Assembly: GCA_000384615.1 (NCBI GenBank)
Contig: ARQU01000003.1
Location: forward strand, 104,751-168,750
Direction: 5' to 3'
DNA length: 64,000 bases
DNA from: an alpha proteobacterium SCGC AAA536-G10
Lineage (GTDB): Bacteria; Pseudomonadota; Alphaproteobacteria; Puniceispirillales; Marisalimonadaceae
Of the stretch, positions 39,536 through 56,598 are shown one piece after another (position 1 is the first letter of the stretch; the number at the start of each line of letters is the position of its first letter). Under the pieces are notes generated by a model that made no database searches, had not been told where the DNA came from, and was given only the letters and a program-made list of their open reading frames with translations. Both the position numbers and the translations under genes were made by a program.

Positions 39536-39612
39536 GGCGGAGTAGCTCAGCTGGTTAGAGCACCGGAATCATAATCCGGGTGTCGGGGGTTCAAGTCCCT
39601 CCTCCGCTACCA
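39536..39612 (+). tRNA. tRNA-Met (anticodon CAT; elongator type, Ile2-lysidine type not formally excluded)
   Basis: Hand-folded 77-nt cloverleaf. Acceptor GGCGGAG/CTCCGCT (G1-U72 wobble), D arm GCTC/GAGC, anticodon arm CCGGA-ATCATAA-TCCGG, variable loop GTGTC, T arm GGGGG-TTCAAGT-CCCTC, encoded CCA. It lacks the three consecutive G-C pairs at the base of the anticodon stem that mark initiator tRNAs. Confidence 0.9.
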
Positions 39613-39956: not shown

Positions 39957-40166
39957 ATGGCTCTATTTGAAAATAAAACATACGCAAATGGAAAAGAAAT
40001 TCTTAAATTTTTTGGAGTTACTTCGGAAACAATAAAAGATTGGATGAAGAATAAAGATTTTCCAAAACCTATTACACCAACATCTAAAACAAGATTGTGG
40101 AGATGTTCAGAAATAGAAGATTGGCTTATGGAAATGGAAATAAGACGTGATGATGGAGACCTATAA
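39957..40166 (+). CDS. alpA: AlpA-family helix-turn-helix regulator / excisionase
   Basis: 69 aa with the characteristic ...FPKPI.......W..SEIEDWL... pattern. A strong SD AAGGAGGG precedes it, and its stop overlaps the primase ATG (TAATG). Confidence 0.8.
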   Translation: MALFENKTYANGKEILKFFGVTSETIKDWMKNKDFPKPITPTSKTRLWRCSEIEDWLMEMEIRRDDGDL

Positions 40167-42436
40167 TGCTATCTTTACAGTCTTATGGAAATGCAGCTTT
40201 GAAGTTGTATGAAAATGGTTATATCCCAATTCCAATTAAGCCATTAACAAAAAGACCAATTATTTCTGATTGGCCAAATATTAAGAACGATTATAACCAA
40301 ATTGAAAATCTATCTTCAAAATACCCACATGCAGGTGTGGGTGTTCTATTAAATGATTTAATTGCATTTGATATAGATATTCTAGATGAAACATTATGCC
40401 TCTTGGTAAAAAAAATAATAACTAATGAACTTGGGGATACTATTGAAAGGATTGGCAAATTCCCAAAGAGAGCTCTTTTTTATAGAAGAGTTGGTAAGGA
40501 ATTTAGGAAACAATCCTCTAAGATTTTCAACCTTACAAAGGGTAAAGCTCAATTAGAAATTTTAGCAACTGGCAATCAGTGTATTGCTTTTGGGACACAT
40601 CCAGAAACAAAGCAACCTTATCAATGGATTGAAGACAGTCTCTTAGACATTCACATCCAAGATCTTCCTAGCGTAAATATCAAACAAGTAAAAAATATTA
40701 TTACCCAAACTGAAATACTTTTACGTAATCAGATTGAACCTAAAGAAGAAGTTAGACCAACTATAAAGACAATAATATATGAAACCAAAAAGGAAGAGAG
40801 TTTTAAGGATAAATCCTTAATACGGGGTGCTATAAAACACATAGATCCAGAAGATTATTATACTTGGATAAAGATAGGTTTCGCACTTAAAAAGTATTTT
40901 AAAGATGAAGGCTTTGAAATTTTTGATACTTGGTCAAAATATAAAATAGATGGCTCTCCATGCCCTAATTACTATAATAAAGACTTTAATAGAGAGAAAT
41001 GGAAGTCATTTAATCCAGAAAAAATAGATAAAAGAAACATATTCAAACTTGCAATACAAAATGGCTGGCAAGGAGGTAGTATTTTTGAAATTGAAAGTAA
41101 TACACACACCTCAGTAGCAAAATATCTAAAAAAGCAATTTGAATTAGACGGCCCAATACCAGTCTACGATGAGGGAGAACTTTGGAAATATAATGGTTTG
41201 TGTTGGAAGCTTGTCCCTGATAGTGACTTAAGACAGTTAGTCCATGAACTTGATCAAAAGAAAACCAAATCAGGTAAGTTGATCCATGTAAGCAAACAGT
41301 TTATAGATGGCTGCCTTCATGAATTAATGTCAATGTGTTCGGAGCCAAATTTTTTTGAAGATCAACCAATGGGAGTAAACTGTAAGAACGGTTTTTTGGA
41401 GATATCTTTCGATAAAAAACCACGGTTGTTGGATCACGATCCAAATCATAAGCAAAGATTTATCTTTGATGCCAAATGGGATGATGAAGATTTTATATTT
41501 TCTGGATATTTGAAGAAATTAATAAACGGTTGTTTTTTTGGTTTAGATGAAATTGTCAAAGGTCAATTGATTAGGCTCATTCAACAAATCTTAGGAGTAA
41601 GTATTACTGGAATTGCAACTAAACTTTCTACACCAATGTGTTTTGTCCTATATGGTCCTTCTGCAACTAATGGTAAATCTCAGATCTTAGAATTAGTACG
41701 GTCTCTTTTACCGAAAGATGCTTGTTCATCCATACCTCCTGCTGATTTAGGTAAAGAACAATATTTAATAGAATTAGTTGGTAAAATGGCTAATTTATCT
41801 GATGAGTTATCAGGTGCTAATGCAATACGTTCAGATAAACTTAAAGCAGTTGTAACGGGCGATACTGTAACGGGTAAAAGGGTTTATAAACCAGTATGTT
41901 TATTTAAACCAAATGCTATTCATATATTTGCAACAAATGTTCTTCCTAATTTTAAGGGAGGAGTAGATGAAGGAATTAATAGAAGGGTTAAAGTTATACC
42001 ATTTGATCGATCTATTCCCGTGAATGAGAGAGTACCAAGAATTGCTGAAAAAATTATTTTAAATGAAAAAGATCAATTATTTAAGTTCGCTGTAAAAGGG
42101 GCATTGGATGTTATCGAAAATGATGGCTTTATTATCCCAGATACAGTTGAATTGTCTACAGCTCAATGGTTTGAAGATTCAGACTCAATATTGTATTGGT
42201 TTAAGGAAAATCACCTTCTTGATTTATTGGACAAAAGTAAAAGTAAAAAGGTAGGCATTACAGAGGCATATTCAAAATTTAAAGCACACATGGAGGAAAT
42301 GGGAGAAGGACAATATGTTCCGACTAGAAACAGATTTGCTCAAAGAATTAGGCAATTGGTCAGAGATGATGTTGATCTTGAAATGGGTAGGGACAAATAT
42401 TCTAACTACATAAGATATAAGCAATTGGTGTATTAG
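40166..42436 (+). CDS. Bifunctional primase-polymerase / P4-D5-type SF3 helicase (phage/plasmid primase, P4 family)
   Basis: N-terminal Prim-Pol (YENGYIPIPIKPLTKRPI..W, IAFDIDI acidic motif, HPETKQPYQW) and a PriCT-2-like region (YYTWIKIGFALKKYF...FDTWS). The C-terminal P4-family helicase has Walker A GPSATNGKS, Walker B NLSDE and the INRRVKVIPF tail. Confidence 0.9.
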   Translation: MLSLQSYGNAALKLYENGYIPIPIKPLTKRPIISDWPNIKNDYNQIENLSSKYPHAGVGVLLNDLIAFDIDILDETLCLLVKKIITNELGDTIERIGKFPKRALFYRRVGKEFRKQSSKIFNLTKGKAQLEILATGNQCIAFGTHPETKQPYQWIEDSLLDIHIQDLPSVNIKQVKNIITQTEILLRNQIEPKEEVRPTIKTIIYETKKEESFKDKSLIRGAIKHIDPEDYYTWIKIGFALKKYFKDEGFEIFDTWSKYKIDGSPCPNYYNKDFNREKWKSFNPEKIDKRNIFKLAIQNGWQGGSIFEIESNTHTSVAKYLKKQFELDGPIPVYDEGELWKYNGLCWKLVPDSDLRQLVHELDQKKTKSGKLIHVSKQFIDGCLHELMSMCSEPNFFEDQPMGVNCKNGFLEISFDKKPRLLDHDPNHKQRFIFDAKWDDEDFIFSGYLKKLINGCFFGLDEIVKGQLIRLIQQILGVSITGIATKLSTPMCFVLYGPSATNGKSQILELVRSLLPKDACSSIPPADLGKEQYLIELVGKMANLSDELSGANAIRSDKLKAVVTGDTVTGKRVYKPVCLFKPNAIHIFATNVLPNFKGGVDEGINRRVKVIPFDRSIPVNERVPRIAEKIILNEKDQLFKFAVKGALDVIENDGFIIPDTVELSTAQWFEDSDSILYWFKENHLLDLLDKSKSKKVGITEAYSKFKAHMEEMGEGQYVPTRNRFAQRIRQLVRDDVDLEMGRDKYSNYIRYKQLVY

Positions 42437-43142: not shown

Positions 43143-44063
43143 TCAGGTGCCAACAGCTACCAGACCCAGAACCAACCGCTTCTTTCTAATCCTGTTCTCA
43201 CGCTTAACCGGAGAGTATAAAAACGATCTCATTGAATTTTTATTCACTTTAGTGGATTCAAGTTCTGGCTGCTTATTAAAGGGAAATGAGTATGTAAGAA
43301 TACCCTTGGTGACACTGCTTGTTCTATTTGAATCGTCAGTCGCAACGTTTAAAGTAAGCCTTTCGCTCAAAGTTAGATTAACTCCTGCCTCTGTACCTCT
43401 CTCTTTAAAACCTGCGCCATCAGACCAATTATACCCCCTGGCATATATTTCTGGGTTATAAGCAAAATCAGACTTAAAACTAATGGTATAGTCAAATCCA
43501 TCTAGAGCTGTCTCAGAAATACCTTCGTAAATACGAGTGTCAGTTAGAGCCCTGTAATAGTTAGCTCTTAAACCCACACCGTTACTTAGGGTCTCCGCGC
43601 CAAGCCCCCAACGCTTATGTCCTGAGCTGAACTCATTATCTAAAAATAAATTTGCGCCATAAAGCCAAGTCTCATTATCAGACAAAGTCCTGTAGCCAAG
43701 ACCGATATTCGCAGTGTTCCTTCCATCAACCCTTGATATACTTATTTGGTTAAAAACGGCATCGCTTTCCCCTTCATTAAGCTTGATAACAGCAGTAGCC
43801 TCGCCGCCTGTTTTGTTATCATTATTAAAAACAGAAACGGAAATGTGTTTAAGATTTTCTCCTGTAGCTTTTTCACTCATAGCTGTAGCTAAAGCGTTCA
43901 ATTTTGACACAGCAGCATCAACCAAGGACCCTTTAAGCTTTTTAGTATTAGACGACTGAGCATTTAGAGCATTAATTGGCAAAGTTACGGTAAAAACAAA
44001 CGTCAATAAAACGATGACTTTGTGTATAAAAACAGATTGGCTTTTTCCCATTTTATTCTCCAT
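43143..44063 (-). CDS. Inverse-autotransporter (intimin/invasin-type) beta-barrel domain protein without a passenger
   Basis: Signal peptide (…LPINALNA-QSS). The block VDGRNTANIGLGYR...LYGANLFLDNEFSSGHKRWGLGAE...LRANYY...ALDGFDY...YNPEIYARGY...VNLTLSERLTLNV...LTYSFPF...RSFLYSPVKRENRI aligns by eye with the intimin barrel (ANLGAGQRF..LGYNVFIDQDFSGNNTRLGIGGEY..INGYFR..PANGFDI..YPALGAKLMY..VNYTPIPLVT..RYDLVQRNNNI). The protein ends about 12 aa after the pore-linker motif. Confidence 0.75.
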   Translation of the reverse strand: MENKMGKSQSVFIHKVIVLLTFVFTVTLPINALNAQSSNTKKLKGSLVDAAVSKLNALATAMSEKATGENLKHISVSVFNNDNKTGGEATAVIKLNEGESDAVFNQISISRVDGRNTANIGLGYRTLSDNETWLYGANLFLDNEFSSGHKRWGLGAETLSNGVGLRANYYRALTDTRIYEGISETALDGFDYTISFKSDFAYNPEIYARGYNWSDGAGFKERGTEAGVNLTLSERLTLNVATDDSNRTSSVTKGILTYSFPFNKQPELESTKVNKNSMRSFLYSPVKRENRIRKKRLVLGLVAVGT

Positions 44064-44941
44064 TATTCCGCCTCCACCAAAAACTCAAATCCTCGCTGCA
44101 TAATCCCTGTGACACATCTATCACCGCCACCAACACCACAAGATGCGTGACCATTACTTTTCTGTCGAATTTTACCATTACCTGTTAGAGCAAAACTCAT
44201 TTTGATACGAGAGGTTGTATTGCTTATTATAGGTTGGTAACCAGTCTTAAAAGCCGAGATTCCAAGGAGATAGCGGGTGTCGTTATCTGAAGTTGATTGC
44301 GTGGTTTCCGCACTCAGCGCATATGAGTTATTTACTGCAAAAGTTTTATCATCTGCAGCACGCTCATAATTTGTTGCTCCAGCGTTTGAGGTCCATCTAT
44401 CCTTATCAGAAACCATATAACCAGGATTTGCATTGGCTGCTAAACCACAATCTATTGGTAAATTGGCAAACCCGTTTGCTTCATCAAAACTCTCACCTTC
44501 GAGCGTCCAACAAGTTGTCCCAGCTGTGTCAGATTTGCCACGCCTGTTTGTACTAAATGTGATTACGCCCTTTGAGTATAGTTTGTTTTCAACAAGAAGC
44601 ACGGAGTGCGTATATGTCCCTAACGGTAAAGAAAGATCAACGTTTGGGGCAACTGCGGCTTCACCGCCAAGTTCTACGCGCACTTGACTAGCGACGGCAG
44701 AATAAAACAACTGTTCACACACGGTTTGGTAGTTACTAACTGTTGGTGTTTGCTGGCATAGCCAGACACCGTGTAGGTTTAGGCCCATTGCCTGAGCATC
44801 GTTTTCACACTGGTTACTTGTATCCGTAACCACTCCCGAGCTCACAGTACAGTCAGCAGATTTAGCGGAGCCAACTAACCAAGATTGAGACATAAATAAA
44901 AAAAAGGTCACTATAAACAAATACTTCATATTATACCTCAT
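44063..44941 (-). CDS. Secreted Cys-rich protein of unknown function, translationally coupled to the barrel gene
   Basis: 292 aa with an N-terminal signal peptide (alternative start MKYLF at 44929), 8 Cys, and a Thr/Ser/Asn/Gly-rich beta-type composition. Its stop TAA overlaps the barrel ATG (TAATG at 44061-44065). G+C is high relative to the host (28/60 at 44101-44160). Confidence 0.7.
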   Translation of the reverse strand: MRYNMKYLFIVTFFLFMSQSWLVGSAKSADCTVSSGVVTDTSNQCENDAQAMGLNLHGVWLCQQTPTVSNYQTVCEQLFYSAVASQVRVELGGEAAVAPNVDLSLPLGTYTHSVLLVENKLYSKGVITFSTNRRGKSDTAGTTCWTLEGESFDEANGFANLPIDCGLAANANPGYMVSDKDRWTSNAGATNYERAADDKTFAVNNSYALSAETTQSTSDNDTRYLLGISAFKTGYQPIISNTTSRIKMSFALTGNGKIRQKSNGHASCGVGGGDRCVTGIMQRGFEFLVEAE

Positions 44942-46574: not shown

Positions 46575-46667
46575 GGCAGACCACCCCTTGACCATTGTCA
46601 TAAGTTGATTAGGAATAGGGTGCAGTAACCCTTCGTTTAATATATTCCTAGCTCGTCAGGCTCATAA
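46575..46667 (+). repeat. Copy 1 of a ~95-nt imperfect direct repeat (integrase-arm-like blocks + tRNA-fMet-like core)
   Basis: Conserved blocks GGCAGACCACCC (46575-86), TTGATTAGG (46605-13), GGTGCA and TAGCTCGTCAGGCTCATAA (46649-67) recur in the same order and spacing at 52308-52398. Confidence 0.7.
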
Positions 46668-46711
46668 CCTTAAGGTCGTAGGTTCAAATCCTACCCCCCC
46701 CCCCGCAACCA
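46649..46711 (+). pseudogene. 3' two-thirds of an initiator-type tRNA-fMet gene (fragment, with expanded C tract)
   Basis: TAGCTCGTCAGGCTCATAACCTTAAGGTCGTAGGTTCAAATCCTAC-C(11)-GCAACCA matches the D-stem 3' strand, anticodon arm (CAT), T arm and acceptor 3' strand of bacterial initiator tRNA. No 5' acceptor or D-arm precedes it. The acceptor C run is 11 nt (46694-46704) instead of about 5. Confidence 0.75.
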
Positions 46712-46851
46712 ACTTATTTTATAAAATCAATAAGTTATACGCACATCAAGAACTTCGGTTTTTGGGGTTTTTTTGCGTTTTAAGCCTGATAAGGGTTTCA
46801 CCATGCCAACCATCGTGCCAACCAGTCGTCAGGTTTATTCCATTTTAATGA

Positions 46852-47133
46852 TCATAATTCATATTGTTTATACTTCTTAGCATGCTTAATAAGTTCTGCC
46901 TTATATTCTTCAGCAGAATTACAAACTTGTTCAAATTCTAAAAAATATAATTTTTGATTTGATAAAGCAAAGTATCCTTTAACTTGTAACTTCTCCATTT
47001 TTGCATTTTTGTCTTCAATGCCATGTTGAGCATTTAATGTTGATACAATTGAATTAGAATGGTCATCATTCATGTGTTCAATTATTCTATTAGATGCATT
47101 TATAAGCCAATTAGGTACTTTGCTATCATTCAT
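46852..47133 (-). CDS. DUF2470-family protein (HugZ C-terminal-like small domain)
   Basis: 93 aa with IIEHMNDDHSNSIVSTL, which matches the HMN.DH signature of DUF2470. Confidence 0.6.
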   Translation of the reverse strand: MNDSKVPNWLINASNRIIEHMNDDHSNSIVSTLNAQHGIEDKNAKMEKLQVKGYFALSNQKLYFLEFEQVCNSAEEYKAELIKHAKKYKQYEL

Positions 47134-47205
47134 TTAAATATCTCTAATTAATTATTACTTATCTATCATATCACGTATTTAAATAAATTCATTACGATAT
47201 AGCGA

Positions 47206-47598
47206 TCAAATTTTAAACAGAATATCCCAACCAGTAACAAGCACCATTAAGTTTAAAAATGCTATTATAGCAGGGGCGACGTACCCTTCAGCAGATGTCT
47301 TTACGCCATCAACAGAACCCCAATAACTATGGATAGTTTGAAAGCAAACAACAGCGCCAATACATGCTTGCACAAAACCATAGACAAATAGTAGCCAAGC
47401 ACCTTCGATAGAAGTGAATAAAGCAATAGCTAGTGTTACTGAAAAGCCGGCAGCAAAAGTACCAACAAGTCTTGTCATAATTGCACTACCTTCACCGAAG
47501 CCATATTTCTCAATGTACTTGCGTGTTTGGAAAATACATTGATAAGCATAAACCAAATTTCCAAATATTATAATTAGTATGAGTGAAAAAATTAGCAT
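47206..47598 (-). CDS. Integral membrane protein (4 predicted TM helices), unknown function
   Basis: 130 aa, almost entirely hydrophobic helices. No recognisable family. Confidence 0.5.
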   Translation of the reverse strand: MLIFSLILIIIFGNLVYAYQCIFQTRKYIEKYGFGEGSAIMTRLVGTFAAGFSVTLAIALFTSIEGAWLLFVYGFVQACIGAVVCFQTIHSYWGSVDGVKTSAEGYVAPAIIAFLNLMVLVTGWDILFKI

Positions 47599-47874
47599 GT
47601 TAGTTTAGATCTCCAACCCTTTCAATTAGGGGACAGATTTTCCATAAAATTAACACCCATCTAAAGCATAATCACAAAAGAATAACAAAAACTTGGCTGG
47701 GTAAATACTTAATATTAATATAGGCTTATTTAATTATTTGTAAATAAGTTGGTTTCAGTTGTTAAATTGGTTTAAAAGATACATTATATGTGTGAATAAT
47801 GATGGCTAAGGAAAATATCGAACATAAAACAGTAAGTTATTTTTTGATTGAAGTTTACTAAAATACATATTGTT

Positions 47875-49041
47875 CTAAAAAAATATATTTAACGTTAAAG
47901 TGATTGCATCATCATCCGATAGCTGCCCAAATGTAGACGTGGTTGTGCGTGCATTATAAAACTGGCTGGTCAATTTGACACTGGTGACATCATTGATCCG
48001 TCGCGACGCTTCCAAAGAGGCAAAGGACTGATCCGTTTTACGATCCAACGATGCCAAAAATAAAAAATTACTGTCTGCAATGTCATTAAATACAAGCCTT
48101 ACACCCGCAACACCAAATTGATTAGCTGCGGCCTGTGGACGGTCGTCATGTTGAATTTCACCAATCAAGCCAATATCCCATATTGTTTCAAATGCTCCGT
48201 AATAAGTATATTCAATCCCCGCAACAGCCGCCGCAAAATCATGAGCGCCAATTAAGCTGCTTTGGGTGCCATGAAGGCTTTCCCATTTGAGCAATGTAAC
48301 ATCGCCAGTATATTGAGCTTCAAATCCTATTGATTTTTGTAAAGCGTAATGTGGGTTTAATGCGCTTCCATTACTGTTGACAGACAAAATGGGATCACGA
48401 GCGGTACCGTAAAAAACACTTCCTGCTAGATCCCAATCTCCAGCAAAGCTAGACAAGCGTGCCGCAAAGTCATCTGCATCCTTGCCATTCTTACGCGCAT
48501 ATTGTGCAGAACTGACTGGAACTCCACTACTTGGATGCGCGTCACTATCATTAAATGTTTTTTCTCGAAAACGAGAAATATACCAAAGCTGCAGGTTACC
48601 AACATCTAGATAGCGTTCAGCAGATATAGATGGTGCCCCAAGTTTACCTGATTTACCATCATTTGCTGCAGCATCGGACTGATTAATAACATCAACAACA
48701 TTTTTACTTTCTGCCTTACCCCAAAATTCCTGACGATTTCCAACAAAAAAATCAAATCCGGCAAAGGGACTGCGAAAATAAGCCTGTCGAGCTTCAGTGA
48801 TCCGGCGACCACTATCTTTTTTATCCCCACGGAAAATGAATTCACCCACAATTCGACTTTTGTCAAAATCATGAAAGGCATCAATCTTTACTTCCACCGA
48901 GCGTCCTTCTGACGCCGTACCATCAGCATGATCAGGATAAAAATCTAGCCGTGATGAAAGCGTGCCATTAACTTTACCAGCAAAAGCCGGTTGTGTTAAC
49001 AAAAGGACAATAGCAAAGCAACGAGCATAATACGTAATCAT
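47875..49041 (-). CDS. Outer-membrane beta-barrel protein (third gene of the RND/LolA-like operon)
   Basis: Signal peptide (…TQPAFA-GK), alternating beta-strand pattern, C-terminal LTLNIFF with terminal Phe (OMP signature). A 4-nt overlap with the upstream LolA-like gene indicates an operon. Confidence 0.7.
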   Translation of the reverse strand: MITYYARCFAIVLLLTQPAFAGKVNGTLSSRLDFYPDHADGTASEGRSVEVKIDAFHDFDKSRIVGEFIFRGDKKDSGRRITEARQAYFRSPFAGFDFFVGNRQEFWGKAESKNVVDVINQSDAAANDGKSGKLGAPSISAERYLDVGNLQLWYISRFREKTFNDSDAHPSSGVPVSSAQYARKNGKDADDFAARLSSFAGDWDLAGSVFYGTARDPILSVNSNGSALNPHYALQKSIGFEAQYTGDVTLLKWESLHGTQSSLIGAHDFAAAVAGIEYTYYGAFETIWDIGLIGEIQHDDRPQAAANQFGVAGVRLVFNDIADSNFLFLASLDRKTDQSFASLEASRRINDVTSVKLTSQFYNARTTTSTFGQLSDDDAITLTLNIFF

Positions 49042-49823
49042 CGTGTCCGTTTCAATGTGGATTTTTCAAAATCACGTTCGGTCATACCGGTCTGAAACTT
49101 CCAATCGGCAAACACGAGTTCCGTTTTCTTGCCTGTCTGGTGATTAATCATAACCAAACGATTAGACCGCCAGAATTTATCTAGATATTGATTATAATCT
49201 TCATAGGTCAAGGTTTTCAAAAGTGCGTCTTTGCGGTCATAGAAATCAATTTTGTGAACGCGGTACTCAGCTTTATCCATCCAAACAATCTGGCGCTTAT
49301 AGCCACTTTTGCGATCAACCGGATCATATTCAACAACAAAACACTCAAGACCATTCAACTCTTCATCACGCAGATAATTATAGGTGTATTTTTCAACTTC
49401 CTGACTAGCGATATCTTCATACGAAAATTCACTACCCATAAAAGGACCTGCCTTATTTGACGATGCGATACGCTTAACGCGTTTCAGAGCTGGCAAATAT
49501 AGCCATTGGTCATCCGAATCAGCCTTTTTTGTGTGCGAAAGGAAAGCTGTGCCGCGCACATCACCCGGACTATCAAATATTACAAGAGACTTATCACCTT
49601 CATTATAACCCTCAAACGTTCTATTACGGATTGTACGTTCAGTTGATTGCCCATATTTGTCCATTAGGATCATTGTTATCTGTGCGGTTGAATCACCAAA
49701 CCCCTTGTCGCGGCTATCGGCTTCAATCGCAATCTCTAGTCCTTTTTTAGGCGAGGCAAATGCCGCTGTTATCATAACGGCAGTGGTAATAGCGACAAAC
49801 ATGGTTACAGTACCGAGTTTCAT
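49038..49823 (-). CDS. LolA-like outer-membrane lipoprotein-sorting family protein
   Basis: Track ORF extends to 49880, but the probable start is MKLGTVTMFVAI (49823), which gives a signal peptide. The conserved block DKSLVIFDSPGDVRGTAFL...DDQWLYLPALKRVKRIASSNKAGPFMGSEFSYEDI is typical of the LolA_like family. Confidence 0.8.
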   Translation of the reverse strand: MKLGTVTMFVAITTAVMITAAFASPKKGLEIAIEADSRDKGFGDSTAQITMILMDKYGQSTERTIRNRTFEGYNEGDKSLVIFDSPGDVRGTAFLSHTKKADSDDQWLYLPALKRVKRIASSNKAGPFMGSEFSYEDIASQEVEKYTYNYLRDEELNGLECFVVEYDPVDRKSGYKRQIVWMDKAEYRVHKIDFYDRKDALLKTLTYEDYNQYLDKFWRSNRLVMINHQTGKKTELVFADWKFQTGMTERDFEKSTLKRTR

Positions 49824-49851
49824 TTTAGTCTCCTTAGACAACATCATGAGC

Positions 49852-52182
49852 TTAAGCATTTTGTGGTGCTTCTTTAACACCTATTATTGGTGTGGTTTCT
49901 TTTTTATCCTTATCAAGGGCAATCAGCAAAGCAGGGAGCAAAGTCATATCGGCAATTAAAGCTATAACAAGGGCTATGCCTGTTAACATTGCCATATTGC
50001 TGTTCACGCCAAAGGTTGATTGAGCCAGAATAGCAAAACCAGCTGTTAGTATCAGAGTTGTAACAACGAGTGCCGTTCCAACACCTTTGAAAGCCGAAAT
50101 GACAGCATCATGCGCAGACAGTTTTAATTCGCGTCGAGCAATCTGATATTTGCTGAGAAAATGAACACTATCGTCAACCACAACGCCAAGCGCCATACCC
50201 GCAACAACAGCGACAGCCATATTGACCTGCCCCACAAGCAAACCCCAAAGGCCAAAGGCGAGTGCCGCAGGCAGCAAATTAGGTATCAAGCTGATGATTC
50301 CAAGCCGGACATCACGTAAGGCAATTAGAATAACACCACTAATCAGAAAAACAGCAATAAGGGTTCCTAGCAACATACTTTGAATATTACGTTCGGAAAT
50401 ATAGGCAAACATCACAGTAGGTCCGACAGCTGTCAGGTTAAAATCAAGCTCATCCGCAAGGTAGCTTTCAGCCCGAGCAATCCAGGCACGAAGTTCATTC
50501 GTGGTCATATCGTCTATTGTAACAATGACCTGTGTTGATGATTTGCTTATATCAAGTTGATTGTTCAAATCCAAACCGAATGGCAACGATAGCTCATATA
50601 AAAGTAGATATTGGGCGGCAAGTTCGCGCGTATCAGGCACCTGGTAAAAAGCTGGGTCACCAGCGTTCAGATCACGATTAAGACGCTTGAAGGTGTCCGA
50701 AATAGATTGTACATGTGTTACCACAGGCTCATTATTCGCCCAGGCGGTAAAATTAGATACTTTTTCAATAAAGACCGGATCGCTAATACCATTGGATTCG
50801 CCAGTAGGCAAACTAAATTGCACCTGATTGACACCAGTTAGATTGCGACTGATCCAGTCGGTATCTTGACGATACTGGACTGACTCGTCAAAATATTTAA
50901 CAAAGTCATCATTGATTTCATTGAGTGGAATAAGTGACAGAATACTAACTGAGATAATAACACTGGCAGTTAGAACCGACTTATAACGCGAAGCGACGTA
51001 GACACCAAGCTTTCCCATTTTATCATCAAGCCTTGCCAAGGTGGCTTTTGATTTCAGCGGAACGAAGCTAATGAGAATAGGTAATAGAACGATTGAAAAT
51101 ATCCAGGCAGCCATAACACCTATGGCTGTTATATTACCCAGGTCGTGAAACGGTGGGGAATCTGAAAAATTCATCGACAGAAAACCCAGAGCCGTTGTCA
51201 GACTAGTTAGAAAAATAGGTTTACCATTAACTCGTATACTGTAAAGCAAGCTGTCGCGTTGACTATGCCCTGCCCGCATCCGGTTGAACATACTTACCAA
51301 TAAATGGATTGCGTCGGCGACCGCAAGGGTGGTGATAATGGTTGGTGCACTGGCAGATGGAGGCGTTAGGCCAATGCCCATCCACCCACCAGCGCCCATA
51401 GCTACAATGATACTTGGCACAACAACAAACAGCACCAAAAATGTTGCCATTATCGATCTAAGCAATAAATAAGCGACAATTAAAATAACCAAGTACATCG
51501 CCGGCACCAATGTTGCCATGTCTAGCATTGATGATTCCAGAAACGCGTTATTCAGAAATATAACACCTCCCAAGCGAATTTTGACATTATGTTTAGCTTC
51601 GATCTCGGCAGCCATTTCGCGTGCAGCGGCTGCCACAATGGCAACCTCGTCAGCGCTTTTACCTGGCATCTGAATGGTTGCATTTACGGATGTGGCCCGA
51701 TGTTGCTTATCATGAATTTTTCCTTCCAGAGCCGGCTCAGTCGTACTCACACGATCAACCAAAGCTTGTTCATTAGCGTTCATTGACATTGCATCAGTAT
51801 ATAAATCTCGCACAATCAGATCATCACCTTCAACCTCGGTATGCTGATGATTTGACAGGCTATCAACTCGGATGGAAAAAGGAAGTTGCCATGCAATGTC
51901 AGTCAACTCCTCAACAGCGGCCAGCACCTCAGGCGCATTAGCTTTGCCTGAAATTGGATCAACAGCAAAGTTAACGTTATCTATCTTGGTATAGGTCTGC
52001 TGGATTTTTTCAAATGCTTTAAGTTGAGGATTTTCTTTTCCAAAAAACACTCTGTAATCATTGTCAAAATAAAGAAATTGGGTTCCTACGGCAGCAAGCA
52101 AGGATACAGCTGTAATAAGACCTAAAACTAGAAATCTATATTTAAGTATCCACTCGCCGTAAGAGCCATTTTGCTGTGACAT
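49852..52182 (-). CDS. RND-superfamily exporter (MMPL / HpnN-like, COG1033-type)
   Basis: 776 aa. Two 6-TM bundles are each preceded by a large periplasmic loop. The SSD-like TM region is LTSLTTALGFLSM and the second half contains GVVVDDSVHFL. G+C is high (32/60 at 50161-50220). Confidence 0.85.
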   Translation of the reverse strand: MSQQNGSYGEWILKYRFLVLGLITAVSLLAAVGTQFLYFDNDYRVFFGKENPQLKAFEKIQQTYTKIDNVNFAVDPISGKANAPEVLAAVEELTDIAWQLPFSIRVDSLSNHQHTEVEGDDLIVRDLYTDAMSMNANEQALVDRVSTTEPALEGKIHDKQHRATSVNATIQMPGKSADEVAIVAAAAREMAAEIEAKHNVKIRLGGVIFLNNAFLESSMLDMATLVPAMYLVILIVAYLLLRSIMATFLVLFVVVPSIIVAMGAGGWMGIGLTPPSASAPTIITTLAVADAIHLLVSMFNRMRAGHSQRDSLLYSIRVNGKPIFLTSLTTALGFLSMNFSDSPPFHDLGNITAIGVMAAWIFSIVLLPILISFVPLKSKATLARLDDKMGKLGVYVASRYKSVLTASVIISVSILSLIPLNEINDDFVKYFDESVQYRQDTDWISRNLTGVNQVQFSLPTGESNGISDPVFIEKVSNFTAWANNEPVVTHVQSISDTFKRLNRDLNAGDPAFYQVPDTRELAAQYLLLYELSLPFGLDLNNQLDISKSSTQVIVTIDDMTTNELRAWIARAESYLADELDFNLTAVGPTVMFAYISERNIQSMLLGTLIAVFLISGVILIALRDVRLGIISLIPNLLPAALAFGLWGLLVGQVNMAVAVVAGMALGVVVDDSVHFLSKYQIARRELKLSAHDAVISAFKGVGTALVVTTLILTAGFAILAQSTFGVNSNMAMLTGIALVIALIADMTLLPALLIALDKDKKETTPIIGVKEAPQNA

Positions 52183-52307
52183 TAAAGCACCTTTTAAAAT
52201 TACAAACTAAGTTGAAAGTATCGTTGATAAACAATATTCAAGAAATAAATACTTCAACACAAAAAAATACAAAAATAGCTTAATAAGTTAGATTTGCCAA
52301 ATAAATT

Positions 52308-52398
52308 GGCAGACCACCCTTTAACTAAATTTCAATCTTGATTAGGTAATTGGTGCATTTACAAATAAGAATGATTGATTAGCTCGTTAGGCTCATAA
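52308..52398 (+). repeat. Copy 2 of the imperfect direct repeat; tRNA-fMet-like core overlaps the integrase stop codon
   Basis: GGCAGACCACCC (52308-19), TTGATTAGG (52338-46), GGTGCA and TAGCTCGTTAGGCTCATAA (52380-98). The integrase TGA (52393-95, minus strand) lies inside the CTCATAA anticodon-loop equivalent. Confidence 0.7.
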
Positions 52399-53349
52399 TT
52401 TAGCATTAACTTGAACATATCTAAACAACTGACTAGCCGTCTTATGACCACTAATTGATGCAACTTCTGGTACGTTTAATCCTTTTTCAAACATCCTTGA
52501 TATAGCTTCATGCCTTAAATCATGAAAAGTAAAGTCAATTAAGTTTGCTCTATTACGAAGCCTTTCCCAAGATTGTCTTAAAGCTACATCAGTAATAGGG
52601 AACACATGGTCAGTGGTCCGTGGAACTTGGCTCAATATATCTATAGCTTTTTTAGTAAGAGGCACCCATCTTGAACTACCATTCTTTGTTAATGGTAATA
52701 AGACTCTTTGATTATCAATGCCAATATGTTCCCACTTCATGCCTAAAATCTCACTCCGTCTCATTCCTGTTTCAATAGCAAAATCGATAATGAGCCATAG
52801 ATACCAAACCTTTGTTTCAGAGGATGCTCTCTTTAATCTTTCATATTCACCAGGTTTTAATCTTCTTTCTCTTGGAGGATTATTTTTAGGCAGTCTTATT
52901 TTTTCAACTGGATTATCACCTAAGCTCCAACCCCATTCTATACATGCAATGTTCCATGCATGTCTGATCAAAACTAGATCATACTGACAAGCTCGAACTC
53001 CATCCTTAAGTCTTCTGTCCCTAAAAGCAGCCAGAATATGGGGGTGGAGTCTTTCTAAGGGTAAGTTCATAAGATCTTTTTCTTTAAGTAACCTTCTTAA
53101 CCTTTGATCCTCTGAAATGAACCCTCTTTTCTTTGGTGTAATTTCATATTTATATTTTGTGATAAGAGAATGAAGAGTGAATGAATGCTCTTTGATCCTT
53201 GACCATTGACCTGATTGCATTAAGACTTCTTGTTTTTTTGCCCATTTCTGAGCATCTAATTTACTATGAAATGATTTTGATATAGACCCTATGTGTTTGC
53301 TTCTTACTTGTGCTTGCCATAAGTTATTTCTTTTACGAAAACTAGCCAC
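52393..53349 (-). CDS. int: Tyrosine site-specific integrase (intact)
   Basis: 318 aa, GTG start after GGAGGG. N-terminal arm-binding-like MASFRKRNNLWQAQVR. Catalytic residues are in ETGMRRSE (Arg), HDLRHE (His-x-x-Arg), GHKT (His) and LFRYV (Tyr). Confidence 0.9.
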   Translation of the reverse strand: MASFRKRNNLWQAQVRSKHIGSISKSFHSKLDAQKWAKKQEVLMQSGQWSRIKEHSFTLHSLITKYKYEITPKKRGFISEDQRLRRLLKEKDLMNLPLERLHPHILAAFRDRRLKDGVRACQYDLVLIRHAWNIACIEWGWSLGDNPVEKIRLPKNNPPRERRLKPGEYERLKRASSETKVWYLWLIIDFAIETGMRRSEILGMKWEHIGIDNQRVLLPLTKNGSSRWVPLTKKAIDILSQVPRTTDHVFPITDVALRQSWERLRNRANLIDFTFHDLRHEAISRMFEKGLNVPEVASISGHKTASQLFRYVQVNAKL

Positions 53350-53430: not shown

Positions 53431-53488
53431 TTAGAGCACCGGAATCATAATCCGGGTGTCGGGGGTTCAAGTCCCTCCTCCGCTACCA
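53431..53488 (+). repeat. Direct repeat 2: exact copy of tRNA-Met positions 39555-39612 (att remnant)
   Basis: 58/58 identity, checked by hand, from the D-loop/D-stem 3' side through CCA. Confidence 0.95.
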
Positions 53489-53538
53489 AAAAATCAGTAA
53501 AATCAATAGTTTATAAAATCATTGCTCAGTGGTCTTGA

Positions 53539-53557
53539 GTTATACACAGTTATACAC
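53539..53557 (+). repeat. Tandem GTTATACAC motifs (candidate integrase arm-type sites)
   Basis: GTTATACAC at 53539-47 and 53549-57 (10-nt phasing), 50 nt after repeat 2. The same doublet follows repeat 3 (56533-41, 56543-51) and precedes it (56344-52, 56357-65). Confidence 0.5.
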
Positions 53558-53570
53558 TAAAATTAGGAAT

Positions 53571-53809
53571 ATGAATAAGAACCTTACAATACAAAGAATT
53601 AATGTATCAAAAGGTCTTTCTTTATATAAAACTTGGCGAAGTCCTTATTATTTTGCTCGAATTTGGGATCCTATTGAAAAAAAATATCGTTAGTAGGGGG
53701 AAGTTTAAGAGATATTCAGATGATGGTTGGTCATAGTTCTCTTCAAACTACTCAGAGATATATTGAAGCAGATAGTCAATCACAAAGGAAAGTAATTGAT
53801 TTGATATGA
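53571..53809 (+). pseudogene. Integrase remnant (N-terminal ~40 codons joined to C-terminal ~35 codons; internal deletion)
   Basis: MNKNLTIQRINVSKGLSLYKTWRSPYYFARIWDPIEKKYR-stop (53571-53693), then ...SLRDIQMMVGHSSLQTTQRYIEADSQSQRKVIDLI-stop (to 53809). The latter is the canonical tyrosine-recombinase C-terminus containing the catalytic RY. Confidence 0.75.
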
Positions 53810-53863
53810 CATAGTGAAAGGAGTAATTATGAGTTCTGTGCTCTTTTCATTACCAGTAAACTT

Positions 53864-54193
53864 TTAACTTAGAATGGTGTCTTCAAGAACTATCCCTCTA
53901 TTACTAAAAGTCTTAATAATCATATCTTCACTCTCCTTAGCATCAATTTCTTTCCAAATAGGAAGGCATGCTTTAAATGCTTTTTCATCTTTATATTCAA
54001 AAACAAAACCTAATCTTGATATATTCTCTTTGTTCCAAATTCTTAAACTTACAAAACGTAATAATCCTAATTTTTTTAATCTTTTGTAGTAAGAATCCTT
54101 TACTTGATCCCACCTTAAACTTGCAAGTTCTAACTCTTTTTCTGACATAAAATCTTGTGTGGTAAAATTAATTAACTTTGGATTAGTTCCCAT
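53864..54193 (-). CDS. Hypothetical protein
   Basis: 109-aa ORF with host-like AT-rich composition. No family recognised. Confidence 0.45.
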   Translation of the reverse strand: MGTNPKLINFTTQDFMSEKELELASLRWDQVKDSYYKRLKKLGLLRFVSLRIWNKENISRLGFVFEYKDEKAFKACLPIWKEIDAKESEDMIIKTFSNRGIVLEDTILS

Positions 54194-54554
54194 AAATTCC
54201 TCTTTTTCGACATTATCTAATTTATTAATGAAAAAATATAATATTAAGAGTTATTTTAATAGTATAATGTTTTCGGACTTACTTTATCTGTATAGTCATT
54301 GGATTTAAATATGATACTAACATTTTTCTTTGTTAATAATTGTTTGATTTAAATTAGAAATCTGGTCTGATAATTCTTTAATATCTAATTCTAATTTATT
54401 AAGTTTATCCTTAAACTCTTTTTCATAATACCTTTCACCATTACTTATTTTTAAATAATTTAATAAAATTACTATCTTTATTATTGAAAAATTATTATGA
54501 ATGCTAAATACATTTTATTTTTTTTTCATATTTTTTATCTTTAATTTAGAGTGG

Positions 54555-55016
54555 TTAAACTCCACTTTTTCTTGGGGGATCCTCTTTTATTTTATTAAAG
54601 ATTGGTGAGGTCTCAAATTTTGCATCTATTTCATTTTTTGAAAAGTATGCTTTTGATCTACAAAAAACTTCCCTCTTTATGTCATACCAAAATGTAGGTG
54701 GGTCAAATGTTCCTCCACCAATACCAGTCATATCTTTGAAAATGTCCGCATTCCAAAAAACTGATGTCCCGCATTCAACACAAAACTTTGTTGCCACTAA
54801 ATTTCCAGATTCCGTTGTATATTCAAATTTTTTTAAATCGCCAGACAATAATTCTACATTTACACTTTTAAAATAGACTGATATGCCAAATGCCGACCCA
54901 GTTCTTAATTGACAATATCTGCAGTGACAAACTGCAGAATGTTCTGGTTTTCCGATTGTTTTATAACGAACATTTCCACATGCACAACCTCCCTTATTTA
55001 ATATTTTATCTGACAT
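54555..55016 (-). CDS. GFA-family (glutathione-dependent formaldehyde-activating / CENP-V-like) zinc protein
   Basis: Zinc-binding Cys pattern GGCACGNVRY...CHCRYCQ...C.ECGT is typical of the GFA domain. Confidence 0.8.
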   Translation of the reverse strand: MSDKILNKGGCACGNVRYKTIGKPEHSAVCHCRYCQLRTGSAFGISVYFKSVNVELLSGDLKKFEYTTESGNLVATKFCVECGTSVFWNADIFKDMTGIGGGTFDPPTFWYDIKREVFCRSKAYFSKNEIDAKFETSPIFNKIKEDPPRKSGV

Positions 55017-55533
55017 AAACTTTCCCTCTAATTAAATAAATTACCTTACTTAAATTTGATTAATAAATATTTATAAGTAAATCATAAAATAAAATTGAAA
55101 TTAAAATGCTTAAATATTAACTAGTAAGGATTAGATCTACTAGTAAGATTTACAACTTTAAAAGAATTACAACCCAAATCAAAACTACTATTAGATACAA
55201 AAAGTTATAGACTTTAGATATTAGTCTTATAAACCATTGATTTATTATTAAAATAGATTTTGGAAAATATTGTCTTTTTTTAAATTAATCTAGAGTAATT
55301 TTATCTTCAACTTTAGTTGTTTTATCTAAATAGGAATTAAATAACTCATCTCTACTAGACTTTGCTTTTTGTGCTTTTTTTAATTTTTTCTCTAATTTTT
55401 ACTCTTGATTATCCATTATCTTAGTAGTGCTTATTCTTATCAATTCATAAATATATAATTTAAATAAATGAGATAAAAAGTAAAACAATTTAATGGAAGA
55501 AGTATATTGAGATAATTTATTAGTCAGAAATAT

Positions 55534-55953
55534 TTAGTAGATTAGTGTTTTGTCAGTACTTAAAACTAAATCTAATAAAGTTTTAGGTAATACTTTTCTG
55601 ATTTTTTTTCCTTTTAAGTCTAAATTTGTAACTCCTCTGTTTTCACATGACATAGAAGAGACGTAAATGGTTACCCCTTTTTTTGTAAGTACTGCCATAT
55701 GTTCTTTTAATTTGCCTGTTCCAAGACCTACTAAGTTATCAATAATGGTGTTTCTAACAAGTTGAACACCATCGCCGGATAAAAATATTTCCACCTTATG
55801 TCCTTCTTCAACAGCAGTTCTAGCAAGTAAAAAACCTAACATTGATTTAGAAACATTATTAGGACCAGACATAATATGAAATAAAATACTTTCCATTAAA
55901 ATAGTATCTTTAAAAAAATGAACATGATTTTGTATTGCAATCTTGCATTTCAT
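55534..55953 (-). CDS. DsrE/DsrF-like sulfur-relay family protein
   Basis: Probable start MESILF (55896). The pattern GHKVEIFLSGDGV...GVTIYVSSMSCENRGV resembles the DsrE/TusD fold with the conserved Cys. Confidence 0.5.
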   Translation of the reverse strand: MKCKIAIQNHVHFFKDTILMESILFHIMSGPNNVSKSMLGFLLARTAVEEGHKVEIFLSGDGVQLVRNTIIDNLVGLGTGKLKEHMAVLTKKGVTIYVSSMSCENRGVTNLDLKGKKIRKVLPKTLLDLVLSTDKTLIY

Positions 55954-56422
55954 TTTTATTAAAATAATTTTAAATAAAAGTATTTTTTAGAAAAAGATTA
56001 TAAAATTAAAAATTTACTTATGTTAATTAGAAATATGTTAAAAATTTAATCAATAATTTTAATTCAATTTAATACATTTATTAAATCAAATTAATATTCT
56101 AATGCGTTATCAATGTTCTATTAATTTATTTAAGAATCGGGTTAACGTAATGGATTAGACTTTATCAGAAACAAACATTCATAAATACTATTAGTAAACA
56201 TTTAAGGACTACTCAGTATATATAAAAACTTATATTGATAGACTATGAACACCTATTCAAACCACTATAGAAAAGAGTTTAAATGAACCTAAAACGAAAG
56301 ATAAATCTATTAGAAAAATTTAAAGAAAAAATAGACACAAAAAGTTATACACAAGAGTTATACACTTTAAATATTAATCATATAAACTATTGATATTAAT
56401 GATAAATTATATTTAGGAAAAG

Positions 56423-56470
56423 GGAATCATAATCCGGGTGTCGGGGGTTCAAGTCCCTCCTCCGCTACCA
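56423..56470 (+). repeat. Direct repeat 3: exact copy of tRNA-Met positions 39565-39612 (att remnant)
   Basis: 48/48 identity, checked by hand, from the anticodon stem through CCA. Confidence 0.95.
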
Positions 56471-56598
56471 ATAATATCAATAAAATCAATCGTTTGCAAG
56501 GTTTCAAAATAGTCTTGAATTTCTATACTTGAGTTATACACAGTTATACAGTAAAATACAGGACTATCTCTGTAAACAAAATCACACAAAGAATACAG

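Follow-up and report, generated by a model that had tools for sequence, protein, structure and literature searches.

Layout and composition of the locus

A 64,000-nucleotide stretch of contig ARQU01000003.1 from the alpha proteobacterium SCGC AAA536-G10, the whole of which we call the window, carries three co-directional open reading frames (ORFs) that we refer to as the trio. The window's ORF list places all three on the minus strand in the order pump, carrier, barrel. They lie exactly at the positions given in an earlier note on this DNA, which described three overlapping or abutting genes whose products together would span inner membrane, periplasm and outer membrane. The predicted locations of the products agree with that description.

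49852-52182, minus strand: pump, RND/MMPL-type transporter of the lipid type (HAE3-like), 776 residues; Pfam MMPL, 8e-35
49038-49823, minus strand: carrier, LolA-like periplasmic protein (PF17131), 261 residues from the probable ATG; PF17131, 1e-66
47875-49041, minus strand: barrel, predicted outer-membrane beta-barrel, 388 residues; signal peptide, C-terminal Phe, AlphaFold2 model

None of the three frames is interrupted or truncated. The longest ORF for the carrier (49038-49880, minus strand, 280 residues) begins with a GTG at 49880. The true start is most likely the ATG at 49823, which would give a protein of 261 residues, because an AAGGAG box precedes it and the homologues at two other loci (L002 and L004) are themselves 261 residues long. 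With this start the carrier gene abuts the pump gene and does not overlap it; carrier stop and barrel start share ATGA.

The trio also differs from its surroundings in composition. Its G+C content is 41-48%, compared with about 30% around it, and the count of 32 G or C in 60 nucleotides at 50161-50220, reported earlier as a sign of import, is correct. When read in 300-nucleotide bins, G+C changes from 25% to 44% near 47900 and from 41% to 29% near 52100, and the high-G+C block therefore consists of the three genes and nothing else; the remainder of the window lies at 21-37%. G+C at third codon positions is 0.30-0.40 in the trio versus 0.17-0.22 in core genes. A scan for promoters and terminators gave results no better than those from shuffled sequence.

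The inner-membrane pump

The pump matches the Pfam MMPL family (PF03176) in two stretches, with 120.7 bits against a cut-off of 20.5 (8e-35), and has weaker matches to ACR_tran, Patched and sterol-sensing families. Its hydropathy profile contains a first transmembrane helix and two helix clusters (residues ~217-423 and 599-758) of about five to six helices each, separated by two predicted periplasmic loops of ~175 residues each. The helix pattern of an AlphaFold2 model built on an alignment of 32 homologues (predicted local distance difference test, pLDDT, 87.3; predicted template-modelling score, pTM, 0.85) agrees with this topology. As modelled, the pump follows the 12-helix RND plan with small periplasmic domains. 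The structures closest to the model by Foldseek are MmpL4/5, MmpL3, HpnN, NPC1, NPC1L1 and NCR1 (template-modelling scores, TM, of 0.70-0.76), and no AcrB-type pump is found among the top 50. By sequence, no solved structure is closer to the pump than E 3e-7, a match that covers the transmembrane core only.

Among NCBIfam models the best match is TIGR00921 (HAE3), at 145.2 bits and below its cut-off of 351.9; by this score the pump is HAE3-like and not a scored member of HAE3. It also falls below the cut-off for actinobacterial MmpL proteins (TIGR00833; 86.4 bits, cut-off 874.7) and below those of both HpnN models (NF052374, the equivalog, 55 bits with a cut-off of 1100; TIGR03480, 103.6 bits with a cut-off of 751.85). 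The 90%-complete host genome contains no match to squalene-hopene cyclase (PF13243). Identification of the pump as the HpnN hopanoid transporter is rejected on the basis of these scores and the lack of a hopene cyclase in the host. The pump is thus an MMPL/RND protein by Pfam match and topology, as had been proposed, and the accompanying term "HpnN-like" holds as a structural resemblance and fails as family membership. More generally, the pump is no equivalog of a characterised transporter.

Three residues of the pump are invariant in the 32 homologues: His293 (H293) in the first half of the protein, located in a TM4-like helix, and Asp670 and His674 (D670, H674) in the second half, located in a TM10-like helix. 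Because they belong to pseudo-symmetric helices that carry "VADxIH" and "VDDxVH", these residues are consistent with a proton relay.

The periplasmic carrier

The carrier matches PF17131 (LolA_like, labelled "TP_0789-like" in Pfam) with 224.6 bits against a cut-off of 30, over profile positions 2-184 of 184, and contains the conserved block QWLYLPALKRVKRI...GSEFSYEDI that the earlier note had quoted. Its Sec signal peptide ends in AFA, followed by S. The closest solved structure is PDB 3bk5 (~62% identity over 235 residues, E 1.3e-92), a LolA-fold protein that was deposited as "putative outer membrane lipoprotein-sorting protein" without a functional study; more distant solved relatives are 9tp6, 4z48 and 3buu. 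The entry 9tp6 is named "Outer membrane lipoprotein-sorting protein" and matches the carrier at E 2e-33, and a literature search found no paper for it.

By profile, the carrier belongs to PF17131 and not to the LolA family proper. It has a partial match to PF07044 (DUF1329) of 42 bits over residues 35-169, with PF17131 remaining its best family. The profile matches place the carrier and DUF1329 in the same superfamily, as separate families.

The predicted outer-membrane barrel

The barrel has a signal peptide that ends in AFA, followed by G, and a C-terminus that reads ...LNIFF, as described earlier for a 388-residue outer-membrane barrel. Searches of Pfam, NCBIfam and PDB sequences with the barrel alone, as a profile, or as 60 diverse family members returned no match, and sub-threshold hints for the family are limited to Porin_O_P, Wzi and DUF5777. 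Clustering at 50% identity yields 1370 clusters at E<=1e-3 (976 at 1e-10); judged by these searches, this is a large family absent from Pfam.

An AlphaFold2 model based on 51 homologues translated from the fetched loci (pLDDT 89.4, pTM 0.84) confidently predicts a beta-barrel of ~18-20 strands. Compared with the PDB by Foldseek, it matches only outer-membrane barrels of 16-18 strands, with probability 1.00; these include Campylobacter MOMP, AlgE, OprB, OccK/OprD and Wzi, which reach TM 0.5-0.58, and general porins (TM 0.45-0.58 overall, 8-13% identity). The model thus describes a porin-like protein without a close solved relative. Signal peptide, C-terminal aromatic residue and predicted closed barrel are together those of an outer-membrane beta-barrel.

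Conservation in the family peaks not in a strand but between strands 5 and 6, in a segment of some 35 residues (101-137), where G101, W107, G108, E111, V116, D117, N120, Q121, D123, K133, L134 and G135 are invariant in the alignment. By strand counting on the model, this segment would be the third external loop. The third external loop of classical porins folds into the lumen, and we suggest that residues 101-137 putatively gate the barrel or bind its cargo, a role that would be conserved.

At two loci (L011 2392-7161 and L044 2243-9711), proteins of the barrel family (~32% identity) have neither a pump nor a carrier beside them. Their genes lie there between those of a sigma-54 two-component pair, with a GAF histidine kinase and a response regulator, and that of a TPR protein of 905 residues, in a layout that resembles the Prs regulators of PEP-CTERM/exosortase systems.

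Conservation of the three-gene unit

Two neighbourhood surveys were used to examine how the three genes are arranged elsewhere. The survey from the barrel side scanned one genome per species and yielded ~600 or more relatives, from which 80 loci were retained. Pump, carrier and barrel occur in the same order and on the same strand in 59 of these, which come from Alpha- and Gammaproteobacteria, Acidobacteriota, Planctomycetota and Verrucomicrobiota; seven others are cut by contig ends, three have carrier and barrel without an upstream pump, and 11 present other contexts. The survey from the carrier side covered 40 loci around high- and mid-scoring PF17131 matches, with the full trio in order in about 28 and a variant order (pump-carrier-pump-barrel or carrier-pump-barrel) in two. 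Most high-scoring PF17131 copies belong to a trio, and low-scoring matches are mostly in other contexts. PF17131 itself is present in 193 of 401 sampled Pseudomonadota genomes. The arrangement is therefore as widespread as the earlier note had supposed. None of the outcomes that the note had named as grounds for rejecting its reading has occurred: the pump is no equivalog of a characterised transporter, the three genes recur together, and the barrel model is confident.

In some loci the first two proteins are joined. Pump and carrier are fused in a single ORF in at least four loci (L020 and L038, from Marinicella; L047; and L131, from the host's order). Pfam finds both MMPL and LolA_like in the fusions of L020 and L131, and further long frames were seen in the PF17131 and pump surveys. 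The Marinicella fusion (P0327, 1055 residues) retains the signal-like hydrophobic segment of the carrier, which connects the pump's cytoplasmic C-terminus to the LolA-like domain, and this linker would place the carrier domain in the periplasm, as the topology requires. A barrel homologue follows the L131 fusion (30% identity, E 2e-33). On comparative grounds, conserved gene order, translational coupling and independent fusions argue strongly for joint action of the three proteins.

A TetR-family gene lies directly upstream of the pump in six of the seven loci sampled for neighbours; loci with an upstream TetR gene include L009, L023 (Marinomonas sp. MED121) and L039. TetR control is typical of inducible efflux and agrees with a transporter for a hydrophobic ligand that is switched on when needed. 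A candidate relative, PG1178-81 of P. gingivalis, is described in the literature as a TetR-headed unit that responds to NO stress. The genes downstream of the sampled trios vary (P450, GGDEF, metallo-beta-lactamase fold).

Several loci depart from this pattern or have distinctive neighbours. Two small marine genomes have altered orders: pump, carrier, second pump and barrel (L103 2381-9161), where the second pump could form a heteromeric pump, and carrier, pump and barrel (L105 5862-10269). One family of small marine genomes of 1.2-3 Mb (f38) has up to 4-5 PF17131 copies per genome, which is striking for streamlined genomes. A carrier-barrel pair without an upstream pump is found in Alteromonas (L071 and L084, 2440-7650), divergent from a gene for a FadE-type acyl-CoA dehydrogenase and followed by a gene for a small OMP_b-brl protein. 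In Paraglaciecola the gene directly downstream of the trio encodes a cytochrome P450 (L010 7552-8796), which could connect the module of this lineage with the oxidation of hydrocarbons or terpenoids.

Origin of the trio in the host genome

The host belongs to Puniceispirillales (the SAR116 order), not to a SAR11-type lineage, and to a genus with ~30% G+C and ~2 Mb genomes. The pump is present in five of 25 genomes of this genus (G000, G411, G403, G410 and G416), and in only one of six relatives that are >=88% complete. At the DNA level, window positions 47865-52199 are 91.6% identical to another Puniceispirillales chromosome (L002), in which the trio and its flanks both have 45% G+C, so that the genes look native there. 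Copies of the block in five other genomes of the order are 88-99% identical in DNA. The trio proteins are 93-99% identical across five genomes of the host genus, and the pump protein shares 94% identity with its counterparts from two further families in the order. The pump is more similar as protein (94%) than the block is as DNA (91.6%), which, with the three intact frames, speaks for selection. Composition, identity to a relative of higher G+C, patchy distribution in the genus and the island repeats described below agree in indicating a recent horizontal acquisition of the 4.3-kb block from a Puniceispirillales donor of ~45% G+C, as the earlier description of the block as imported island cargo had it.

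The block is part of a 5.74-kb cassette (46655-52398) that is shared within the host genus and 99.2% identical in G411. The cassette in turn is nested in a 13.9-kb island at a tRNA-Met gene. Besides the trio, the features of cassette and island are as follows.

46650-46710, plus strand: partial sequence similar to the 3' half of tRNA-fMet, at one cassette end; read directly, with the 99.2%-identical segment of G411 beginning at 46655
46852-47133, minus strand: DUF2470 protein, 93 residues; PF10615, 3e-9; G+C 27%, host-like
47206-47598, minus strand: small membrane protein with several hydrophobic segments, 130 residues; no Pfam match
52309-52400, plus strand: partial repeat of the tRNA-fMet-like sequence with upstream arm, at the other cassette end; G411 homology stops at 52398
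39536-39612, plus strand: tRNA-Met (CAT), integration target of the island; found by ARAGORN
40166-42436, plus strand: P4-type primase/helicase of the island; Prim-Pol, PriCT_2, D5_N, DUF5906
52393-53349, minus strand: tyrosine recombinase (integrase) of the island; PF00589, 1e-26; adjoins an attR-like repeat
53431-53493, plus strand: direct repeat of the tRNA-Met 3' end, distal island border; 98% identity over 58 nucleotides

The two cassette ends share the repeat GGCAGACCACCC...TGATTAGG...GGTGCA...TAGCTCGTyAGGCTCATAA, and the copy at 52309-52400 overlaps the integrase stop codon. The cassette contains the trio, the 130-residue membrane protein and the DUF2470 protein, and the last of these is probably outside the transport module. 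The 130-residue protein lies within the segment common to G411, G403, G416 and L005, and does not accompany the trios of L002, G431 and G439; it travels with the trio only in the low-G+C lineage. Within the host genus the cassette occupies at least three chromosomal sites (that of the window; L125 8781-14518; L126 6022-11449). In G411 its neighbours are Ppx/GAF genes on one side and a proteasome-like/transglutaminase/ATP-grasp cluster on the other, and in G403 they are tRNA-Ser and an SLT_2 gene, with no integrase near it in either genome.

Flanking repeats of the tRNA 3' end, an integrase and foreign composition together identify the larger element as a tRNA-targeted island. A database cluster member of its primase is named "P4 family phage/plasmid primase". 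A third copy of the 58 nucleotides of the tRNA-Met 3' end lies at 56413-56475. The unit of ~3 kb between the second and third repeats (53494-56475) has DUF6974, GFA and DsrE-like genes but lacks an integrase, and resembles what is left of an earlier island. Elsewhere in the same island (43143-44941), a passenger-less inverse-autotransporter beta-domain protein of 306 residues is encoded in DNA of foreign composition (40-43% G+C), in a gene translationally coupled to one for a 292-residue protein without a family.

Proposed mechanism and alternative explanations

We propose that the trio performs proton-driven transfer of a hydrophobic molecule or lipid from pump to soluble carrier to dedicated barrel, most likely outward; we give this proposal somewhat better than an even chance of being correct. 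The cycle would begin with extraction of the cargo from the inner membrane by the RND protein, a proton-driven transporter of the lipid type. The pump would then hand the cargo to the soluble LolA-like protein, a half-barrel with a hydrophobic cavity, which in turn would dock on its dedicated 18-strand barrel, where the conserved inward loop may gate entry. The cargo would either stay in the outer membrane or leave the cell, as in envelope lipid export or the efflux of a hydrophobic compound. Such a route would bypass the membrane-fusion protein and the TolC channel of classical RND pumps. The proposal builds on domain identities, predicted folds, signal peptides, gene order, fusions, the frequent TetR gene and the recent acquisition of the block. 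From these we infer the hand-over between proteins, the use of the proton gradient, the direction of transport and the class of cargo. The outward direction is favored because all characterised bacterial relatives export and because TetR control is typical of efflux.

Several observations weigh against this proposal. NPC1, which is among the closest structural relatives of the pump, works inward with a soluble carrier. No TetR gene adjoins the trio in the window or on the SAR116 chromosomes, and the host genome has a single, sub-threshold TetR_N match; the regulatory argument is therefore not applicable here. Of the 80 barrel homologues, 11 are in unrelated contexts (for example beside PEP-CTERM Prs-like regulators; two were inspected), so that the family is not confined to the trio. 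A literature search found no experiment that defines substrate or direction for any trio member, no functional study of the trio, and no substrate, direction or structure for pump or barrel. The earlier statement that the arrangement has no experimentally defined substrate thus stands, to be qualified by indirect clues from TOL_3187/3188 on n-C28 and from AmeABCD, described below. The authors of the Thalassolituus proteome read the first of these as related to uptake (PMC6304351).

Uptake is the alternative that deserves most attention. Here the barrel would admit a long-chain alkane, wax or lipid, the carrier would ferry it, and the RND protein would insert it into the inner membrane, as in NPC2-NPC1. 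Specific induction of TOL_3187/3188 on n-C28 in an obligate alkane degrader (PMC6304351) points this way, as do the presence of NPC1, NPC1L1 and NCR1 among the best structural matches of the pump, the up to five PF17131 copies in small marine genomes of one family, and catabolic neighbors at some loci (the FadE-like acyl-CoA dehydrogenase of Alteromonas and the P450 of Paraglaciecola). However, the characterised bacterial RND transporters, including the closest (MmpL3/4/5, HpnN and AmeD), are exporters, and TetR control is typical of efflux. The host genome, moreover, has no P450, and no alkane-degradation or catabolic genes lie in or near the cassette. Taken together, we regard uptake as unlikely, though by no means negligible. 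A role in Lol-like outer-membrane biogenesis, either lipoprotein sorting or delivery of the adjacent barrel, was proposed for TOL_3187/3188 by Gregson et al. (PMC6304351), and would suit both the LolA fold superfamily of the carrier and its database name, "outer membrane lipoprotein-sorting protein". Yet the carrier, a PF17131 protein outside the LolA family proper, is partnered by an RND protein in place of the LolCDE ABC transporter, and the barrel has the Sec signal and C-terminal Phe expected for BAM-dependent insertion. Most genomes of the genus also do without the module, and such an accessory and mobile element is a poor fit to a core biogenesis role, which we judge very improbable.

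Two further explanations would deprive the locus of a new function. If the pump were HpnN or another known lipid exporter, its substrate would already be known. Weak matches to HpnN models and the place of HpnN among the structural neighbors are what this suggestion has in its favor; with 55 bits where 1100 are needed (NF052374) and 104 where 752 are needed (TIGR03480), no squalene-hopene cyclase in the 90%-complete host genome, and an HpnN that works without dedicated carrier or barrel genes (PMC6394551), we find it scarcely credible. Alternatively, the trio could be inert, hitch-hiking DNA that is silent or decaying in this host. Its foreign composition, the lack of an adjacent regulator and a promoter scan no better than shuffled sequence are compatible with inertness, but three intact, full-length frames, and protein identities of 93-99% in the genus and 94% to other families that exceed the DNA identity, make it highly unlikely.

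Returning to proton-driven transfer through pump, carrier and barrel, a broader formulation can be considered. The trio may represent a general inter-membrane route of diderms for very hydrophobic molecules (lipids, waxes and long-chain hydrocarbons) that is independent of Lol, Lpt, Mla and TolC and resembles an NPC2-NPC1 relay. We offer this generalisation tentatively and consider it rather doubtful. If it is true, no other dedicated parts would be needed, and the trio would therefore move between marine lineages as a plug-in cassette; in the surface ocean, the SAR116 trio could handle abundant cyanobacterial alkanes or algal lipids.

Importantly, the trio would be a compact envelope-spanning machine in which a soluble carrier replaces the TolC duct, and this substitution makes it relevant to outer-membrane lipid homeostasis, to solvent and hydrocarbon tolerance, and to carbon cycling in the oligotrophic sea. 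The window copy provides a clean natural experiment. The 4.3-kb block has moved between families of the order and among at least three sites within the genus, which argues that the three genes suffice alone. The fusions, as targets for cryo-electron microscopy, and the upstream TetR protein, whose effector could report on the substrate, offer direct experimental handles.

Comparison with known systems

Considered against known systems, the trio is a widespread variant of the kind that combines an HAE3 pump, a LolA-superfamily protein and a barrel, and is not surprising in kind. It does not have the architecture of classical AcrAB-TolC, which consists of a membrane-fusion protein (MFP), the TolC channel and a trimeric HAE1 pump of ~1050 residues; the pump described here has 776 residues, and the cassette contains no gene for an MFP or an outer-membrane factor. 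The Lol pathway (LolCDE-LolA-LolB) shares with the trio a soluble half-barrel carrier with a hydrophobic cavity that shuttles between membranes. In the trio, however, an RND protein takes the place of the ABC transporter as energiser, and an integral barrel that of LolB as acceptor; the carrier is of PF17131, and the whole is accessory and mobile.

Aryl-polyene/flexirubin-type clusters reportedly pair an RND-superfamily exporter with a LolA-like protein, by which a lipid pigment reaches the outer membrane. Those export genes sit in a biosynthetic cluster, whereas no biosynthetic genes accompany the trio. HpnN, MmpL3/4/5 and NPC1 resemble the pump in fold (TM 0.70-0.76), in their small periplasmic domains, in hydrophobic cargo and in the use of accessory partners (MmpS, NPC2). 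They are related to it by sequence in the transmembrane cores only (E ~1e-7), and none of them is known to combine a LolA-like carrier and a dedicated barrel.

A match in gene content comes from Thalassolituus oleivorans, where TOL_3187, a fused MMPL-LolA-like protein, is 42-fold up on n-C28 and the adjacent domain-less "porin" TOL_3188 is produced only on n-C28 (PMC6304351). Going by the published description, TOL_3187/3188 appears to be the trio in fused form: two domains of MMPL type plus one that is LolA-like, and after these a predicted, domain-less porin, as in the fused loci L020, L038, L047 and L131. It differs from the window trio in the fusion of pump and carrier, and is known from proteomic induction on n-C28.

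The nearest characterised system is AmeABCD of Castellaniella defragrans, a four-part HAE3 system for monoterpene tolerance and dye efflux, whose deletion lowers monoterpene tolerance and increases Nile Red accumulation (PMC6394551). Its four parts include a 451-residue DUF1329 carrier, a 605-residue DUF1302 barrel and a BNR/Ycf48-like fourth protein. The trio, by comparison, has a 261-residue PF17131 carrier, a 388-residue barrel without a Pfam match and no BNR gene. DUF1302 (PF06980) has no match at E<=0.01 in 60 members of the barrel family, and no BNR/Ycf48-like gene was found in the cassette or beside homologous trios. Clusters of DUF1302, DUF1329, BNR and COG1033 genes also occur in Shewanella and Pseudomonas, where transposon screens show them to be cofit (bioRxiv 10.1101/072470). 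What AmeABCD and the trio have in common is a HAE3/COG1033-type pump of ~780 residues, a LolA-superfamily periplasmic protein and a dedicated barrel in place of MFP and TolC, and, like the trio, AmeABCD can sit on a genomic island.

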